From: a virus
Direction: 5' to 3' (one strand)
UHGV virus genome: UHGV-0040698
DNA length: 20,193 nt
Positions within the stretch are counted from its first letter, which is position 1; each line of letters starts with the position of its first letter. Below the pieces are notes generated by a model. It saw only the letters and a list, made by a program, of their open reading frames with translations, was not told where the DNA came from and ran no database searches. The position numbers were made by a program, and so were the translations under genes. Of the stretch, positions 12,354 through 20,193 are shown piece after piece.

Positions 12354-12703
12354 TGGAGCCATACAGCCTCACACTCGATGAGGCCTGTCATTTTCTCAAG
12401 ATATCCAGACCGACTGCCATTAACTGGATACGCACAGGGCGTCTTCAGGCAACACGCAAAGATCCCACTAAGAATAAATCTCCTTACCTCACAACACGAC
12501 AAGCCTGCATTGCGGCTCTTCAGTCTCCGCTGCATACTGTCCAGGTGAGTGCGGGTGATGGCATAACAGAGGAAAGAAAATGTCACTCTTCCGCAGAGGT
12601 GAAATATGGTACGCCAGTTTCACATTGCCGAACGGTAAAAGATTTAAACAGTCTCTTGGAACAAAGGACAAAAGGCAGGCGACAGAACTCCATGACAAGC
12701 TAA
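12353..12703 (+). CDS. Excisionase-like (AlpA/Xis-type HTH) protein
   Basis: [28 protein letters not shown] helix-turn-helix of excisionase type; TAATG coupling to the upstream gene; 3' end overlaps the integrase start by 124 nt, so the true C-terminus is uncertain. Confidence 0.5.
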
Positions 12704-13743
12704 AGGCTGAAGCATGGCGGGTCAGCAAACTTGGTGAAATACCTGATATAACGTTCGAGGAAGCGTGTGTCAGGTGGCTTGAAGAGAAAGCACATAAAAA
12801 ATCACTGGACGATGACAAAAGCCGGATCGGATTCTGGCTTCAACATTTCGCAGGAATGCAACTAAGAGACATTACTGAATCAAAAATTTATTCAGCAATG
12901 CAGAAAATGACGAACCGGCGTCATGAGGAAAACTGGAGACTCAGGGCAGAAGCATGCAGAAAAAAAGGGAAACCTGTTCCAGAATACACGCCAAAACCAG
13001 CGTCCGTTGCAACGAAGGCTACGCATCTTTCATTTATAAAGGCCCTACTAAGAGCCGCAGAGCGTGAATGGAAAATGCTGGATAAGGCACCAATTATTAA
13101 AGTGCCTCAACCAAAGAATAAACGGATCCGCTGGCTGGAGCCCCATGAAGCACAAAGGCTGATTGATGAATGTCCGGAGCCATTAAAGTCTGTTGTTGAA
13201 TTTGCACTGGCAACAGGCTTAAGACGCTCGAACATCATCAACCTTGAATGGCAACAAATAGACATGCAGCGCCGGGTGGCATGGATAAACCCGGAAGAGA
13301 GTAAATCAAACCGCGCAATTGGCGTTGCGCTGAATGATACTGCATGTCGCGTTTTGAAAAAACAAATCGGGAATCATCACCGTTGGGTATTTGTGTACAA
13401 GGAAAGCTGTACCAAACCAGACGGAACGAAAGCGCCAACAGTAAGGAAGATGCGGTATGACGCAAACACAGCCTGGAAAGCGGCGCTGAGACGGGCTGGT
13501 ATTGATGATTTCAGATTTCACGACTTGAGACACACCTGGGCAAGTTGGCTGGTTCAAGCCGGAGTCCCGTTGTCAGTGTTACAGGAAATGGGAGGCTGGG
13601 AGTCTATCGAAATGGTTCGTCGATATGCTCACCTTGCACCTAATCACCTTACCGAACACGCACGGCAAATAGACTCGATCCTGAACCCATCGGTCCCAAA
13701 TTTGTCCCAGTCAAAAAATAAGGAAAGTACTAATGATGTGTAA
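12580..13743 (+). CDS. Lambda-family tyrosine integrase (Rac IntR-like)
   Basis: N-terminal [14 protein letters not shown] arm-binding region; catalytic R (LATGLRRSN), HxxR ([10 protein letters not shown]) and Y (VRRYAHL); GAGGAA SD; transcribed toward the tRNA-derived att core. Confidence 0.9.
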
Positions 13744-13757
13744 CTTATTGATTTAAA

Positions 13758-13806
13758 TGGTGCCGATAATAGGAGTCGAACCTACGACCTTCGCATTACG
13801 AATGCG
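13758..13806 (-). other. Partial tRNA-Thr(CGU) (thrW) 3' end, 49 nt: attachment-site core
   Basis: Minus strand reads CGCATTCGTAATGCGAAGGTCGTAGGTTCGACTCCTATTATCGGCACCA = anticodon loop (CGT), T-arm and acceptor 3' strand of E. coli thrW; the 5' half of the tRNA is absent. Confidence 0.75.
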
Positions 13807-13894
13807 TAAATTGATCTTGTAAAATCAATACCTATCGAATTTAAATGGATTTTTTGCCACAATATTGCCACAGTTCGTTAGGAATCAGACAGAA

Positions 13895-14968
13895 ATGGCG
13901 ACTATACGCAAACGTGGTAACTACCAATGGGAAGCTCAAATCCGTAAACGAGGTTTTCCCTCTCAAACCAAAACCTTTAACACCAAAGTAGAAGCAGAAG
14001 CTTGGGCCAAAATGATCGAGTCAGAAATGGCGAGAGGAGTTTGGCTTAGCCGCAGCGAAGCGGAATCTACGACATTGTATGAAGCCCTAACGCGATATGA
14101 AAAAGAGATTGTTCCCGACAAAAAAGGGGCAGTGCAAGACCAATCATTGGTGCGGATACTAAAAGGCACTCAGCTGGCGAAAAACTATATGGCCAGCATC
14201 AGGAGTGCCGATGTCGCCAAGCTGAGAGATGAATGGTTGAAAATCTATGCCCCTGCAACCGTTTTAAGGCGTTTGGCCTTACTTTCTCATGTATTCAACG
14301 TTTCGCGGAAAGAATGGGGCATGGAGAGCCTGCTGAACCCCGTAGAGGCCATTCGCAAACCTCAACCCAAGAACTCCAGGACCAGACGCCTGGAAGCGCT
14401 GCCTGTAGTTTCTGAGAAAACCGGTGTTACGTCAGGAAAGGAAATAGCCAACGAGATCGAACATATCATCGCCGCAACACATTCATTAGTATTGCCAGCA
14501 ATCATTCTTCTGGCGTTAGAGACAGCCATGCGCCGTAGCGAAATCGCAGATCTTCGATGGCGCTTTATCGATCTTGATCGGCGAGTTGCACATCTGCCGG
14601 ATACTAAGAATGGTAATGCCCGCGATGTCCCTTTATCAACGAAAGCCATCACGATACTGTCCAGTCTCAAGGAACATTCTAAGCCAGCTGCTGATAAGGT
14701 TTTTGATATGCGTGCAGACGCGATTACCCGAGCTTTTGACCGAGCTGTAAAACGAGCCAGAGAACGATACGAGAAAACAAACTCATTATGTGATGAATCA
14801 TTCCTTAAAGATTTAAGATTTCATGACCTTCGACATGAAGCAACTTCTCGACTTGCTGAAATTTTCCCTATGCATGAACTGACCAAAATTACAGGACATA
14901 AAGATCCAAGAATGCTAATGCGGTATTATCATCCAAAAGCTGAAGATTTGGCGTTAAAGTTGAAATAA
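13895..14968 (+). CDS. Tyrosine recombinase / integrase of the second island
   Basis: Catalytic R (ETAMRRSE), HxxR (FHDLRHEATS) and Y (LMRYYH); ATG at 13895 (the track start 13865 is a TTG). Confidence 0.85.
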   Translation: MATIRKRGNYQWEAQIRKRGFPSQTKTFNTKVEAEAWAKMIESEMARGVWLSRSEAESTTLYEALTRYEKEIVPDKKGAVQDQSLVRILKGTQLAKNYMASIRSADVAKLRDEWLKIYAPATVLRRLALLSHVFNVSRKEWGMESLLNPVEAIRKPQPKNSRTRRLEALPVVSEKTGVTSGKEIANEIEHIIAATHSLVLPAIILLALETAMRRSEIADLRWRFIDLDRRVAHLPDTKNGNARDVPLSTKAITILSSLKEHSKPAADKVFDMRADAITRAFDRAVKRARERYEKTNSLCDESFLKDLRFHDLRHEATSRLAEIFPMHELTKITGHKDPRMLMRYYHPKAEDLALKLK

Positions 14969-14977
14969 GGACGTTAT

Positions 14978-15868
14978 ATGGAATATAAAAATAATTTGGT
15001 TGACGCATCATCCAAATTAAACAACCCTCAACTATTGGCTATAATATACTTAATACCTTTTGGATACTTGATTGTAGAAAACCCATTATGGCTAGAAAAT
15101 ATATACATTGCCGCTCCAATTTTTCTATCATCTATAGCTTTATTAACCAGTGTATACATAGGATATCGTGATTTATTAAATAAAGTATTTAATAATACAG
15201 TGGTTAAGTGGGGCGTAACTGGCTTTACATATTCAGTATGCTTATGGATCGCAAAGTTTAAGCTTGACATAGCTTATGGTATAGCCCCAGAAAATCTTAA
15301 TTACTCAACATTAGCTTATGCTTTCATGCTCTCATTTCCAATAGGAGCAATGATTTGTGCAACTACAGTCTATATATACATATTTTTGCGAGATGTATCC
15401 CCAGCAAAAATAGTAATATCCTCTATGATTTCAGTATATATTGGAAACTTGGCTCAACATCATATACAAGTGAACAATCTTCCTGAAAAAATAATATTAA
15501 TAGGACTCATAATTATGGTCCCCTATAACATGGTCAATCTAGCCAGTTCATTAGTTATTAAAAGGAAATTTAATTTTAATCGTTTAGTATCAGGCTTATC
15601 CCTTTTTGCTGTGTCAGTTGCTCTTTTTATTATTAGCATGACAGCAATGAAATATATTGAAAGATTTCAAGAAAAGTTTATTTTTCTTGATGCAAGAACA
15701 TCTACGACATGTGGTAGCGCAGAAAGCAAATCTCTTTATATTGAAAAAAATGAAAATCAGTGTTATAAAATATCAGGAAATAAATTCTCGGAGTTAAGAC
15801 TAACTCTTGTAGATAAAAACATCCCGAATATAAATAATAAGGGCACTTCAACTTATGAACAAAAATAA
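14978..15868 (+). CDS. Polytopic membrane protein of unknown function (296 aa)
   Basis: AGGA SD 8 nt before ATG, 9 nt after the integrase stop; multiple hydrophobic segments; strongly AT-rich. Confidence 0.65.
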   Translation: MEYKNNLVDASSKLNNPQLLAIIYLIPFGYLIVENPLWLENIYIAAPIFLSSIALLTSVYIGYRDLLNKVFNNTVVKWGVTGFTYSVCLWIAKFKLDIAYGIAPENLNYSTLAYAFMLSFPIGAMICATTVYIYIFLRDVSPAKIVISSMISVYIGNLAQHHIQVNNLPEKIILIGLIIMVPYNMVNLASSLVIKRKFNFNRLVSGLSLFAVSVALFIISMTAMKYIERFQEKFIFLDARTSTTCGSAESKSLYIEKNENQCYKISGNKFSELRLTLVDKNIPNINNKGTSTYEQK

Positions 15869-16082
15869 CCCTGCTAATTCATTTTCTATAGAAGCAAGGA
15901 AAGAAGCTTTTCGGAGAGCTGAAGCCAGTCTTTTTTTATCAAGTAAAGATCCCAAAGGCTCCTCATTTTTTAATGAAATAAAAAATAAGGTAATCAATGG
16001 AGAGCTAACCTATGAAGAGGCAAAGAGAGAAGTGTTAAATCATCACATTGAACAATCTAAAAATAAAATTAAAAAAGGCTAA
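15855..16082 (+). CDS. Small charged protein (75 aa), unknown function
   Basis: ATG overlaps the end of the membrane-protein gene by 14 nt; weak SD. Confidence 0.45.
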   Translation: MNKNNPANSFSIEARKEAFRRAEASLFLSSKDPKGSSFFNEIKNKVINGELTYEEAKREVLNHHIEQSKNKIKKG

Positions 16083-16342
16083 CATCCAGTTAGCTGTATT
16101 AGCTCAGGCTCGAACTGACAGTTTGCGTAGGCAAAATGCAACCAAATCTGACAGTCTGCTTTGAGCGAGGAGCGGACGTTAGTAATTGTATCGTCGTGGG
16201 CGCATTATTATTTTTCTATTCAACTAAATGTGATAGGGGTGTCTTTTAGTGTTGTTTCTATTGTTCACAAAGGCTTCAATTTGATATGAAGCCCTTATTT
16301 AAGAATTTAGGGCTAGGATGCTTTTGCGTAGCATTGCTATTA

Positions 16343-17296
16343 TTATTTAGGGCGGGCTGATGTTAATGTCGCTAGCAAGGTTGGCATGAACCATTCTCTA
16401 ACAAGCTCCTCATACATATTTGAAAGATTTGTTAACTTATGCCAAACCACTTCGGAACAGTAACTCAAAAAATGTTCATAATGTTCAGGTTTTACCTCTT
16501 TATCAATATCTATTTGAAGTTGGATCAACTCCTTTTGGCTCGATACCATCGGCTTCCAAAATTCATGACCAGACCATATATCTTGTCTAAGAGCAATTAC
16601 AATAAAGTTATTTACCATCTCTATAGCTTCATCGAAAGAGACAGGAAATTGTACGGCCGCTTTACCTTGTAATCGGTTTATTTCTTTTAATTGATAGTTA
16701 AAAAGTGAGAATGCGCCATACATTTTTGATCTTTTACCATATGCACGTAATGGAACAAGCGCATCTTCATCATCCAGAATTTCATTTTCAAGAGGTATAT
16801 ATATAGTCTTTGAGTCTTTTTTAGAATAATTCGGGTCTTCTGGTATGAGAACTTTATCTATGTAATCATTAAGGCAAATAAAAAATGCCTTTTCTGTATT
16901 AGTGTCAACTAGTATCAATAATACTGGAATTGCAATACCTATAGACTGAACAGTCAAAATGTCTGATATATCTAACTTGAATTTTGCGACAGGGATTTCG
17001 ACAAAATCGCTTTTATCTTCTGTTAACTTTCCTTTGGTTACATTTCCACGAGCATAGGCTTTACGTGTACAATATTCAATACAATCTGAAGATTTTAGTT
17101 GTACAAAGAAGTTTTCACCAAGGGTTTCTGCAATACTTTCACTGTCATCAATAAAATCAAATAATTCAACAACGCAATCAATACCATAGTCAGCGCCATA
17201 GCTATGTACGACCCATTCGCGAGGTAGTTTTTCCCGCAGAACCCTGATTGAAATGTCTTCTTTTACCTGGCTAATAGACCGTCTTTTCTTTGGCAT
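16343..17296 (-). CDS. DUF4365-like (PD-(D/E)xK nuclease-like N-terminus) protein, 317 aa
   Basis: Strong GGAGG SD; N-terminal HSYGADYGIDCVVELFD...FFVQLKSS pattern resembling DUF4365; AT-rich. Confidence 0.65.
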   Translation of the reverse strand: MPKKRRSISQVKEDISIRVLREKLPREWVVHSYGADYGIDCVVELFDFIDDSESIAETLGENFFVQLKSSDCIEYCTRKAYARGNVTKGKLTEDKSDFVEIPVAKFKLDISDILTVQSIGIAIPVLLILVDTNTEKAFFICLNDYIDKVLIPEDPNYSKKDSKTIYIPLENEILDDEDALVPLRAYGKRSKMYGAFSLFNYQLKEINRLQGKAAVQFPVSFDEAIEMVNNFIVIALRQDIWSGHEFWKPMVSSQKELIQLQIDIDKEVKPEHYEHFLSYCSEVVWHKLTNLSNMYEELVREWFMPTLLATLTSARPK

Positions 17297-17472
17297 GTTA
17301 CCTCCTAAAATTACAAATTAAAAAACAGATCTTACACTCGAATGCTTAAAATGTCCGCTTCTGACACAGGGCTGCTGTTGCAGCCCTGACAACCTCGTAA
17401 CATTCCCCCCTTCATTATTAGTTTTAAATCTTGTCAATTTTCTTCTTTCAAGAATATGCTTGCATCAAGCAA

Positions 17473-18867
17473 TCACGGCTTTTCCTTGGCTTTGAGTTTA
17501 TCGGCGACATCTGGAACAATACTAAACTCGGTTACTGATGCAAGTACCTGGTTTTTCCATTGGGTCTCACAGATGATCTCTCCATTGTGTTCAAACCAAT
17601 GTGTTGCCCCCGGCAGGAAATCATGGGACATTGGATAAGCAGCATTAGGGTTATGAAATACTTCAAGTTCAAAACACCAAAATTCTTTGCCATCGCAAAG
17701 ATTAATATATTCAGGCGATTGAATATCTAGATCGAAGTCAATTGGTTCCAAGGCCCCTTCAGTCCTATCAAATAAAATCCCAACCCTGCGGGCTTTCACA
17801 ATAGGTGAGGAAAATTCAGCTTGGATTGCCATTCGCTGGAATTTTGGCAATGTTCCAGCATTACTAAACAAGATAGCAGATAAATTTTCAATCTCTGGGT
17901 GGTTAAATAGTCCTGCCGGAATATTTACATGGCCTAAAAGCTTTTCAATTGATAATGCAGCAGCCTTCATACCTTTGGATGTTTTGACTGTATGTGCGGT
18001 TTGCCCATACAAATAGGTTGGAAGTGACTCGCGAGACCAGACCATAGTGCCCCCACCGCTAAAATCCGCTATAGCGATTGCAAATGGAAATCCTTTAACA
18101 TGCGGTAGTTCTTCATACTTTCTCTGGAGTTTAGATCTGATGGTCTTAGCGAACCGTGCTGCCATATCACCTGCTGTGCGAGCTAATCGATCTCCGGGGG
18201 GGAATTGTGTTTGAGGCAACTTTAGGCTGCCCGGACCAGTTGGATTCGCGGTGACCGCCTCAACATATGCTTTGTTATTACCGTTCATGAGCATAAAATC
18301 CGGAGATGGATAATCTTGAAAAACTTTAATTCCCTGCTCTTTAAAACATGCGAAAAGGTATAGCTCCCAGATTCTAGAGTTGAATCCTTGGGTCTGGAGA
18401 TCGGTTCTGAAGTTATCATCAGGTTTTGGTAATGCCAGATAGAGCTCGACAATTAAATGAAATGCTCCTCGGTACTTTATCGTGGACGATAATTGTATAA
18501 ATGCCTGACAAACATTCCGCTCACCAACATGATCCAGTCGGGCTCTACGTGATTGCCCAGATGGAATCGGTAATAAATCTCCTCCGGCTGAAAGGTGCTT
18601 ATCAAGATGCACCAATGCCTCCTGCTCGGTAAAACACATCTCATGCTCGAGAGGTACCAGCACATAATCTTCCCGTCGCCTGAGCACAACAAGGCCATAT
18701 GAATTTTTGCTGTATTGAAGGACTGCACCATATCCAAGCCCTTTTTCATTTGACCAAGCGGAAAGTAATTCCGCATTACCATAATTAGGCCCATGTGGCA
18801 ATGACATTGCAAATATCTTAAATGCTTCAGTAGGCATTCTTTGTAGGCTATAGATCTTATTAGACAT
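17473..18867 (-). CDS. Hypothetical protein (464 aa), second gene of a two-gene operon
   Basis: GGAGAG SD 8 nt before ATG 18867 (the track's ATG 18873 is only 2 nt from the SD); 22 nt after the upstream gene; no named motif. Confidence 0.65.
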   Translation of the reverse strand: MSNKIYSLQRMPTEAFKIFAMSLPHGPNYGNAELLSAWSNEKGLGYGAVLQYSKNSYGLVVLRRREDYVLVPLEHEMCFTEQEALVHLDKHLSAGGDLLPIPSGQSRRARLDHVGERNVCQAFIQLSSTIKYRGAFHLIVELYLALPKPDDNFRTDLQTQGFNSRIWELYLFACFKEQGIKVFQDYPSPDFMLMNGNNKAYVEAVTANPTGPGSLKLPQTQFPPGDRLARTAGDMAARFAKTIRSKLQRKYEELPHVKGFPFAIAIADFSGGGTMVWSRESLPTYLYGQTAHTVKTSKGMKAAALSIEKLLGHVNIPAGLFNHPEIENLSAILFSNAGTLPKFQRMAIQAEFSSPIVKARRVGILFDRTEGALEPIDFDLDIQSPEYINLCDGKEFWCFELEVFHNPNAAYPMSHDFLPGATHWFEHNGEIICETQWKNQVLASVTEFSIVPDVADKLKAKEKP

Positions 18868-18889
18868 TTTCATCTCTCCATAGATAATC

Positions 18890-19942
18890 CTAAAATTCAG
18901 TTAAATTGAAGCTTCCTTGATTTAGATGACATATTTCTGGGACGACCGATTCTGATATACCTTCACTTTCATGAATCCCTAGTGTTACTACTGTACTAAG
19001 CTCAGGAAACAATCTTCTCTTTGTTTTTGGTTTAATTTTTATATGTGAGATCATCTCCAAAAATCTGGAGGTTGTATAAATTGTGTCATAATGAGCAGAT
19101 CCTTCGCCATCGTCATACCATGAGCCTGTATCCACTACTACAGTGTTAAGTAATGGTGCTATTAAATTGAAATTATCAGTGCGAATAGAGACTGCAAACT
19201 TGAAGGGATAAGAATCTTGCTGTGCAAAGTAATCCTCACCACGCCCGTATTGCCTAGTAATTTCAACTATTCCGCGCACCAAAAGATAAATATAATTTTC
19301 GTCAAGGTTCAGCAACTCAATGGATTCAACATTGCACCAATCAACAGTTGTTTGTGAAGATAATATATCCAGTTCGTCAGGGATATTATTCATTGTGATG
19401 TCAGTAACTTCATTCTGTACTTCCTCGATTATTGATTCGGTAATAACACGCTCAAGTTCATCGAAGGTATCGAATATTATGTTACACAGTTCTATTATTA
19501 GTTTAGCACTCTCAAAAAACTGTTTGGGGTTACTATCAAATGAATGTTCGCTAATATGGGTGTAATCGTTTAAAGAAGAATAGTTTTTATTGAACCATGC
19601 TATACCATCATCTAGTCTTTCGATAGCTACATCATCAAGAAGTTGATCGGGTATATGCTTCTGGGCGATGTATTTTGCTTGCTGTTTACGGGTAACAGTG
19701 GCGTTATTTTTGTTTTTAGTGAACCATGGAGACGCCATAACTCTGTCATTTGGTGCCAGTCGTTTCAGCACATGATTTATTAGCTCACGTATTGCAAATG
19801 CAAAGTTGTTGAAGCGCAGAGGATTACCATGAGAACAATAGTTGCGAAGACTGGCATGTAAGAGTTCATGCTCAAAGTCAGTTTCTAGGTGCTCTTGAAA
19901 CTCCTTGATGAAATCCATTTCAAGCATTTTTTTTAGTTTCAT
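18890..19942 (-). CDS. Hypothetical protein with HEPN-like R-x4-H motif (350 aa)
   Basis: ATG at 19942; N-terminal FAFAIRELINHVL contains R-x4-H; AT-rich; first gene of the operon. Confidence 0.6.
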   Translation of the reverse strand: MKLKKMLEMDFIKEFQEHLETDFEHELLHASLRNYCSHGNPLRFNNFAFAIRELINHVLKRLAPNDRVMASPWFTKNKNNATVTRKQQAKYIAQKHIPDQLLDDVAIERLDDGIAWFNKNYSSLNDYTHISEHSFDSNPKQFFESAKLIIELCNIIFDTFDELERVITESIIEEVQNEVTDITMNNIPDELDILSSQTTVDWCNVESIELLNLDENYIYLLVRGIVEITRQYGRGEDYFAQQDSYPFKFAVSIRTDNFNLIAPLLNTVVVDTGSWYDDGEGSAHYDTIYTTSRFLEMISHIKIKPKTKRRLFPELSTVVTLGIHESEGISESVVPEICHLNQGSFNLTEF

Positions 19943-20059
19943 ATAAGTGCCTAATTATCAATTGATTGTGGGCTAAATAGCCTGCTTTTATGTTACAGAA
20001 CATACTGGTTCATTGGATAGTTGAAGCTGGATAAAAATGCACGGTTACTTAGATTAAGT

Positions 20060-20090
20060 AATCAAGAATCAAGAATCAAGAATCAAGAAT
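20060..20090. repeat. Heptanucleotide tandem repeat (AATCAAG)x4 plus partial copy
   Basis: Four perfect AATCAAG units and a partial AAT, about 120-150 bp upstream of the start codon at 19942. Confidence 0.8.
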
Positions 20091-20193
20091 GTCGGACTTT
20101 AAAAGTAATAGTTTCCCATATCTGTATCCAGTCACTGTGACCTGCCCCCACGATTAGATACAACACTCAGTTAGTAACGTCGGAATCTTCATT

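Follow-up and report, generated by a model that had tools for sequence, protein, structure and literature searches.

The 20,193-nucleotide (nt) virus genome UHGV-0040698 (hereafter the window, meaning this whole stretch of DNA at its full length) carries toward its end three adjacent minus-strand genes, encoding proteins of 350, 464 and 317 amino acids (aa), which a first-pass annotation made from the letters alone had proposed as a single undescribed three-gene defence module. The trio proves not to be conserved, and we conclude that the three genes, judged by how each family is distributed and by where shared sequence stops, are separate modules in an Escherichia coli defence island. We favor, with a probability of roughly 0.6, the reading that a thrW-associated integrative island has its cargo end here, with separate, self-contained candidate anti-phage genes stacked in it: a diverged member of the known PD-T7-1 family (464 aa), a pP_pnuc protein (350 aa) and a solo DUF4365 protein (317 aa). 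All three genes are probably anti-phage. The genes and the 22-nt gap between the 350- and 464-aa genes are present as first described:

16343-17296, minus strand: 317-aa gene, DUF4365 protein
17297-17472 (176 nt), minus strand: spacer and junction between two separately mobile modules, with hairpins, a motif and homology breaks
17473-18867, minus strand: 464-aa gene, read from its second ATG at 18867, PD-T7-1-family protein
18890-19942, minus strand: 350-aa gene, pP_pnuc_1 + pP_pnuc_2 protein
19943-20137, minus strand: conserved stretch upstream of the two-gene cassette (promoter region), with an (ATTCTTG)x4 tandem

Each protein has numerous full-length homologues (514, 130 and 387 matches for the three), and we therefore take the open reading frames (ORFs) to be real genes and not chance ones. 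Read from its first ATG the middle gene would span 17473-18873 and encode 466 aa; the spacing of a GGAGAG Shine-Dalgarno sequence and the RefSeq start favor the second ATG, giving 464 aa and the 22-nt gap. Two of the genes are indeed much more AT-rich than the prophage part of the window (GC fractions of 0.351 for the 317-aa gene and 0.368 for the 350-aa gene, vs. 0.46-0.525), with the 464-aa gene at 0.432. Searching Pfam and PADLOC, as the first-pass annotation had suggested, yielded pP_pnuc, DUF4365 and PD-T7-1 matches, although none in PADLOC for the 317-aa protein; NCBIfam gave no match for any of the three proteins, and sequence searches of the PDB gave nothing real for any of them.

The middle gene is a diverged member of the PD-T7-1 family

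The 464-aa protein, in which no nameable motif had been recognized at first and for which Pfam has no match, matches the PADLOC profile PD-T7-1 (PDLC04073) at E 3.8e-83 (277.7 bits), with residues 115-451 aligned to positions 114-447 of the 452 in the profile, and also matches PD-T7-5, a shorter relative of PD-T7-1, at E 3.7e-38. We call canonical those PD-T7-1-clade members that match the PADLOC profile end to end, at 540-620 bits; in BLASTP, residues 7-431 of the 464-aa protein align to one of them at 35% identity. Since the canonical proteins are 35-37% identical to the 464-aa protein and share its signature motifs (ELYLFA, PDF, [IV]EA[VT]T[AV]NP, FSN[AS]GTL.KF.RM and HNP), we place the latter in a sister clade of PD-T7-1. 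This clade is large, with members of ~450-470 aa in alpha-, beta- and gamma-proteobacteria at 45-50% full-length identity, and 20 of 20 sampled members match the PD-T7-1 profile (up to 3.1e-93), over their C-terminal ~335 residues only. By sequence, then, the 464-aa protein is a diverged member of the known PD-T7-1 defence family, which it resembles in length (~450-465 aa), in architecture and in having a PD-(D/E)xK-like core; like the 464-aa relatives, PD-T7-1 family members typically stand alone, on mobile elements and in defence islands. It differs from canonical PD-T7-1 in its profile score (278 bits vs. 540-620) and in lying 22 nt downstream of pP_pnuc within one cassette, whereas PD-T7-1 was cloned alone.

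The protein consists of an N-terminal alpha/beta domain (~1-95), a core of the PD-(D/E)xK-like nuclease class (~120-270) and a beta-rich C-terminal domain, and E168, D190 and E203 would form its catalytic center. PD-T7-1 emerged from a functional screen of E. coli fosmids and defends as one cloned gene (Vassallo et al. 2022, PMC9519451), giving more protection against T-even phages than against T7; its 'nuclease' label stems from weak HHpred matches to Hjc/PDDEXK obtained by those authors, and activity was reported solely for the ECOR46 protein RCQ85672.1 (PMC9519451). We suggest that the 464-aa protein most likely needs no partner and works as a nuclease of the PD-(D/E)xK type, triggered by phage or directed at phage DNA; its N- and C-terminal domains would confine activity to infected cells or to phage DNA.

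The 350-aa gene encodes a pP_pnuc protein with no Argonaute gene seen nearby

The 350-aa protein matches full length both domains of a Pfam 'predicted pPIWI-associating nuclease', pP_pnuc_1 (PF18165; E 1.2e-34, 119.3 bits, gathering cut-off 26.3) and pP_pnuc_2 (PF18166; E 5.3e-17, 62.6 bits, gathering cut-off 25). PADLOC Aga_Nuclease also matches it full length (E 1.4e-58), and its RefSeq name is 'pPIWI-associating nuclease domain-containing protein'. It had been read at first as HEPN-like, from the R-x4-H string RELINH. The string is there, at residues 52-57, and R52 is invariant; the histidine is shared by about half of the relatives (17 of the 31 close ones, set A2, and 16 of the 38 distant ones, set A4), its position being occupied elsewhere by N, Q, I, R, V or L. 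The residues that are invariant in pP_pnuc are R52, W73, R85, H129 and P246, so that the invariant histidine is H129, 77 residues from R52. With R-x4-6-H not conserved and fold evidence within noise, we do not regard the protein as an established HEPN RNase (e.g. RnlA/LsoA or HepT).

An AlphaFold2 model (predicted local distance difference test score, pLDDT, 84) predicts a helical N-domain, an NTF2/cystatin-like beta domain and a tail of ~70 aa that is extra relative to the pP_pnuc family. We found no significant relative of the protein among solved structures, and no solved nuclease fold matching either pP_pnuc domain; the C-domain resembles NTF2/cystatin/VirB8, and D237 is its sole near-invariant acidic residue. 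The nucleases of long-B prokaryotic Argonautes (bAgaN) are described as 390 aa long, with a helical N-domain and a RecB-like PD-(D/E)xK domain (PMC13535254, PMC10620215).

The family comprises 1091 clusters at 50% identity, nearly all of them ~280-aa stand-alone proteins. Among other places, it was found at the P2 portal/GPA hotspot (Serratia and a JGI genome), on P1-like E. coli plasmids, in Klebsiella, within defence islands of rhizobial plasmids, and immediately downstream of integrases; phage GenBank records contained no pP_pnuc homologue. Contrary to the family name, the window holds no Argonaute (Ago) or PIWI gene, and none was seen at 148 pP_pnuc loci, in annotated or Pfam-listed neighborhoods or among Pfam-scanned tight neighbors, a survey that left unscanned those ORFs of metagenome and viral loci that were not tightly coupled to pP_pnuc. 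The same held in the DUF4365 contexts described below, and we set aside an Argonaute link for either protein. Our literature search found no relevant paper on pP_pnuc, PF18165 or PF18166. We suggest that pP_pnuc is an independent cargo gene, usually solo in mobile-element hotspots and here joined to a PD-T7-1-like gene, and that its invariant R52/R85/H129 cluster may serve a nucleic-acid-directed role, that is, binding or cleavage of nucleic acid or nucleotides.

Where pP_pnuc does have tight neighbors, they are varied: integrases, AbiJ_NTD4, Mrr_cat, an EEP nuclease, Hypoth_Ymh, DUF5677 and DUF6043. On peat-metagenome contigs (L174, L177-L183 in our numbering) a ~30%-identical pP_pnuc is preceded, with a 4-nt overlap, by a gene for a protein of 449-457 aa. 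The 457-aa form, seen with this overlap at 7 peat-metagenome loci, has no Pfam match and is unrelated to the PD-T7-1-like family (hhalign probability 0.1%). We rejected it as a conserved upstream partner of pP_pnuc in general; within that lineage it may be a partner of another kind that has been conserved.

A mobile two-gene cassette

The pP_pnuc and 464-aa genes travel jointly as a cassette of ~2.8 kb, with identical gene order and a gap of 22-35 nt, in the E. coli island, in an Enterobacter asburiae island beside proBA-thrW, on Rts1 (the IncT plasmid of Proteus vulgaris, NC_003905, our L114) and on a Rahnella victoriana plasmid. Conservation is 96-97% in Enterobacter and Rts1 and 85% in Rahnella, and extends from up to 246 nt upstream of pP_pnuc to ~83 nt past the stop codon of the 464-aa gene, near 17390; within it, the upstream region at 19943-20137 is shared with the cassette of Enterobacter and, in part, with those of Rts1 and Rahnella. 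Four tandem copies of ATTCTTG (20063-20090, minus strand), 120-150 nt upstream of the pP_pnuc start codon, may be an operator or a slippage-prone tract. The Rts1 cassette (26510-28980; 97% and 95% protein identity) has IS5 immediately upstream and an AbiJ-NTD4 gene nearby, and both of its genes are annotated merely as hypothetical proteins. On Moellerella plasmids pP_pnuc is 97% identical. The 464-aa gene is inactivated in two lineages, by a frameshift in the pair on a Rahnella chromosome and by truncation through IS1 in E. coli ES3, with pP_pnuc intact in both cases. We discounted ES3 as an independent pair-only arrangement, as it is the same island truncated by IS1.

A candidate same-strand ORF just downstream of pP_pnuc (at least 70 aa, starting -30 to +60 nt from the pP_pnuc stop) was present at 39 of the 148 loci; at 16 of these 39 it was a PD-T7-1-like gene or its remnant, and all 16 had a pP_pnuc at least 83% identical to that of the window. 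Just outside this shallow clade both genes are solo. In the P2 portal/GPA defence hotspot, pP_pnuc relatives of 76-77% identity are unaccompanied, and no pP_pnuc neighbor was found beside the relatives that share 82%, 61% and 60% identity with the 464-aa protein, on an integrative and conjugative element (ICE), a plasmid and an unclassified contig. Nor did phmmer detect a pP_pnuc or DUF4365 homologue within 7 kb on either side at 80 loci of 464-aa relatives from other species. Because both genes are solo just outside the clade, because pP_pnuc outlasts the loss of its neighbor, and because GC differs between the two (0.368 vs. 0.432), we view the cassette as two self-sufficient genes recently joined in what is presumably one transcription unit.

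The 317-aa gene encodes a solo DUF4365 protein

For the 317-aa protein the initial suggestion of a DUF4365-like domain was borne out: Pfam DUF4365 matches residues 13-178 (E 2.8e-15), with the expected DYGID...QLK pattern seen as GADYGID...VQLK at residues 34-40 and 65-68. Residues D36, D40, E44, D47, E57, E61, Q66 and K68 are invariant in the family (18 sequences in the case of D36, D40, E44, Q66 and K68). Homologues range from Yersinia and Pseudomonas to cyanobacteria, at 56-85% identity. The C-terminal half is helical and conserved; the protein has no other Pfam match at E <= 0.1 and no PADLOC or PHROG match. The gene occurs solo at the end of a Yersinia prophage, in islands of Pseudomonas, and in E. 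coli A134, where it adjoins IS256 and a broken integrase.

In the Argonaute system SPARDA, DUF4365 forms the Mrr-like nuclease domain termed 'DREN' (PMC10810196, 10.1101/366930), and SPARDA-type DREN nucleases target plasmids (10.1101/2025.04.08.647717). The DREN-APAZ protein that accompanies short prokaryotic Argonaute in SPARDA and the 317-aa protein share an N-terminal DUF4365 nuclease domain with the conserved D...QxK residues. The 317-aa protein differs in standing alone, with no Argonaute partner seen either in the window or at the other loci that we inspected, in having no recognizable APAZ domain, and in a different, highly conserved helical C-terminal half; solved SPARDA chains gave no profile match to it. 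A second relative is Divona, a Vibrio integron-cassette defence with N-terminal DUF4365 and crr6 (10.1101/2024.07.02.601686), likewise a single gene built on an N-terminal DUF4365 nuclease; its C-terminal crr6 domain (PF08847) sets it apart from the 317-aa protein, which has neither crr6 nor any other Pfam match there. The 317-aa protein is thus a candidate solo DUF4365 nuclease of the DREN/Mrr-like PD-(D/E)xK kind. We propose that its gene was acquired separately and is transcribed separately, and that the protein, with its D...QxK site intact, is most likely a stand-alone restriction-like or abortive-infection nuclease governed by the helical C-terminal half; it could be of Mrr type, modification-dependent or infection-activated.

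Boundaries between the modules

The trio was found solely in E. coli, in islands that are nearly identical. Enterobacter, Rts1 and Rahnella have the pair without DUF4365, and the DUF4365 block common to E. coli A134 covers window 16153-17395, so that shared-sequence blocks break between the 464-aa and DUF4365 genes, at ~17390-17395. It is from the solo distribution of each family together with these block boundaries that we argue against one three-gene system.

Two hairpins in the 176-nt spacer 5' of the 317-aa gene, a terminator-like one just past the stop codon of the 464-aa gene (17457-17471) and one of 9 bp (17367-17388), fit separate transcription of the 317-aa gene, in line with the separate promoter first assigned to it. 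The motif TGTGTCAGAAGCGGAC lies at 17348-17363, and window 17348-17388 (minus strand) forms an imperfect palindrome, GTCCGCT-yTGTGCCAGA-AGCGGAC, with core TGTGYCAGAAGCGGAC. Each cargo module is preceded by this palindrome, which lies ~50 nt ahead of the ATG of DUF4365 and, in other genomes, 233 nt ahead of that of pP_pnuc. Its positions at other loci (our numbering) were:

L001: ~16176
L104: 9214 and 10954
L105: 10080
L124: 3775 and 6580
L204: 3775

In other genomes the sequence 5' of the palindrome differs by host, and the 3' side is conserved with the cassette; the core was found in at least 120 IMG/VR contigs, with unrelated flanks. The palindrome may mark the boundaries of cassettes, whether as a recombination site, an operator or a terminator.

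Island setting

Positions 16000-20137 are 99.6-100% identical to 7 of the 5426 complete E. coli genomes, and the window is, on these matches, E. coli chromosomal DNA. The match of the island to complete E. coli genomes stops at 20137; the last 56 nt (20138-20193) are unmatched in all 7 genomes otherwise carrying the island, and therefore the junction upstream of the cassette differs in the source strain. Further features of the island are:

12580-13743: prophage integrase
13758-13806, minus strand: 3' 49 nt of thrW, an att-site remnant identical to the 3' end of Enterobacter thrW
13865-14968, plus strand: tyrosine integrase of the cargo-bearing island (Pfam Phage_integrase E 3.7e-26; RefSeq 'site-specific integrase')

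The second integrase of the first-pass annotation is thus present, and of the tRNA site that it reported there is thrW sequence only as a fragment: neither ARAGORN nor Rfam found a whole tRNA in the window, and what remains is the 3' 49 nt of tRNA-Thr(CGU) thrW, between the prophage and island integrases. RefSeq places a dubious 112-nt 'tRNA-Ser' at this fragment. Its position between both integrases suggests tandem integration at thrW.

Beyond the window, in NZ_CP135658 (L001) 17324-28138, the same element goes on with TrbL/TrbJ/TraJ remnants, interrupted by IS1, and with further genes: HigA, a Septu-like PtuA (E 2.4e-241) with an HNH partner, and Lamassu LmuB (1016 bits) with DUF4297. The trio is therefore one end of a larger defence island, as its placement had led the first-pass annotation to expect, and this island lies in the remains of a conjugative or integrative element.

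Between the island integrase and the trio, window 14978-16082 (plus strand) encodes a 296-aa multi-pass membrane protein (phrog_26661, GC 0.305) whose gene overlaps by 14 nt a gene for a 75-aa protein, a VbhA-family antitoxin by RefSeq; no Fic toxin for it was seen within the window, and neither protein is in PADLOC. The pair may be another small cargo module. DNA of window 16000-16180 (the 3' end of the 75-aa gene and the adjacent spacer) is present in more than 700 E. coli records.

Alternative readings

Several observations weigh against stacked, self-contained anti-phage genes. The literature that we searched held no experiment on any solo pP_pnuc protein, on any solo DUF4365 protein, or on the 464-aa clade of the PD-T7-1 family. 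The PD-T7-1 profile leaves the first ~113 residues of the 464-aa protein unaligned, identity to canonical members is merely ~35%, and the lysine of the canonical (D/E)xK is replaced by valine (E203-A-V205). The 22-nt spacing and joint mobility of the pair are equally expected of a true two-component system, and distant pP_pnuc homologues are translationally coupled, by a 4-nt overlap, to Lit peptidase or caspase-family genes.

These last points bear on the possibility that, in this lineage, the PD-T7-1-like protein makes up a two-component system with pP_pnuc, the latter being a sensor or regulator of the nuclease or a second effector; pP_pnuc would then be a protein that teams up with interchangeable effectors, here a nuclease and elsewhere a Lit peptidase or a caspase-like protease. 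The genes lie on the same strand with no terminator predicted in the 22-35 nt between them, the pair has been kept as a mobile unit in at least 4 replicon or host contexts, and neither pP_pnuc domain has an established nuclease fold, which, with the NTF2-like C-domain, would fit a non-catalytic partner. Nonetheless, pairing is limited to the one shallow clade, both families are overwhelmingly solo and the nearest relatives outside the clade are solo on both sides; pP_pnuc stays intact after partner loss, PD-T7-1 proper works as a single gene, and the other tight neighbors of pP_pnuc are a miscellany of defence genes and integrases. We consider such a system unlikely. Somewhat more doubtful is a bolder form, in which pP_pnuc is a stand-alone immunity protein of unprecedented structure, widespread (~1100 clusters at 50% identity) and not Argonaute-associated, that also occurs upstream of interchangeable effectors (a PD-T7-1-type nuclease here, a Lit peptidase or caspase-like protease in Rhizobiales) and senses infection or gates the nuclease, making the cassette a two-component variant of PD-T7-1.

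It is also improbable, in our estimation, that the genes, or some of them, have no anti-phage role and serve the mobile element (in addiction, plasmid or ICE exclusion, or DNA processing) or are decaying cargo. The lack of experimental data on these clades in the searched literature would allow this, as would the presence of the genes on ICE and plasmid backbones (Rts1, the TrbL/TrbJ remnants), the action of SPARDA-type DREN nucleases on plasmids (10.1101/2025.04.08.647717), and the two inactivations of the 464-aa gene. However, there is strong purifying selection, with identities of 45-50% over the full length (464-aa family) and of 56-85% (DUF4365) across classes and phyla, pP_pnuc turns up repeatedly in defence islands and at the P2 portal/GPA hotspot, and anti-phage activity has been demonstrated in the PD-T7-1 family. 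The originally proposed three-component system can be put aside with near certainty: the genes are neighbors on one strand, all are predicted nucleases, and the trio is identical in the 7 complete E. coli genomes, but the confinement of the trio to near-identical islands, the pairs without DUF4365, the solo DUF4365 genes, the block break at ~17390-17395 and the terminator-like hairpin in the 176-nt spacer all speak against it.

Implications

The three-gene module itself is not a new system, and the region is an ordinary stacked defence island, with one diverged member of a known system and two solo candidates. A hypothetical E. coli gene is thereby assigned to the experimentally validated PD-T7-1 family, as part of a widespread proteobacterial sister clade. 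The pP_pnuc and 317-aa DUF4365 proteins are two compact, well-conserved solo candidates, whose domains have until now been known, or named, solely from Argonaute settings; both recur with no Argonaute seen, at the P2 portal/GPA locus, at prophage ends, as ICE cargo and on plasmid Rts1. If either protects alone, it would constitute an additional single-gene system, and if this is true of pP_pnuc, a misleading family name would be corrected.

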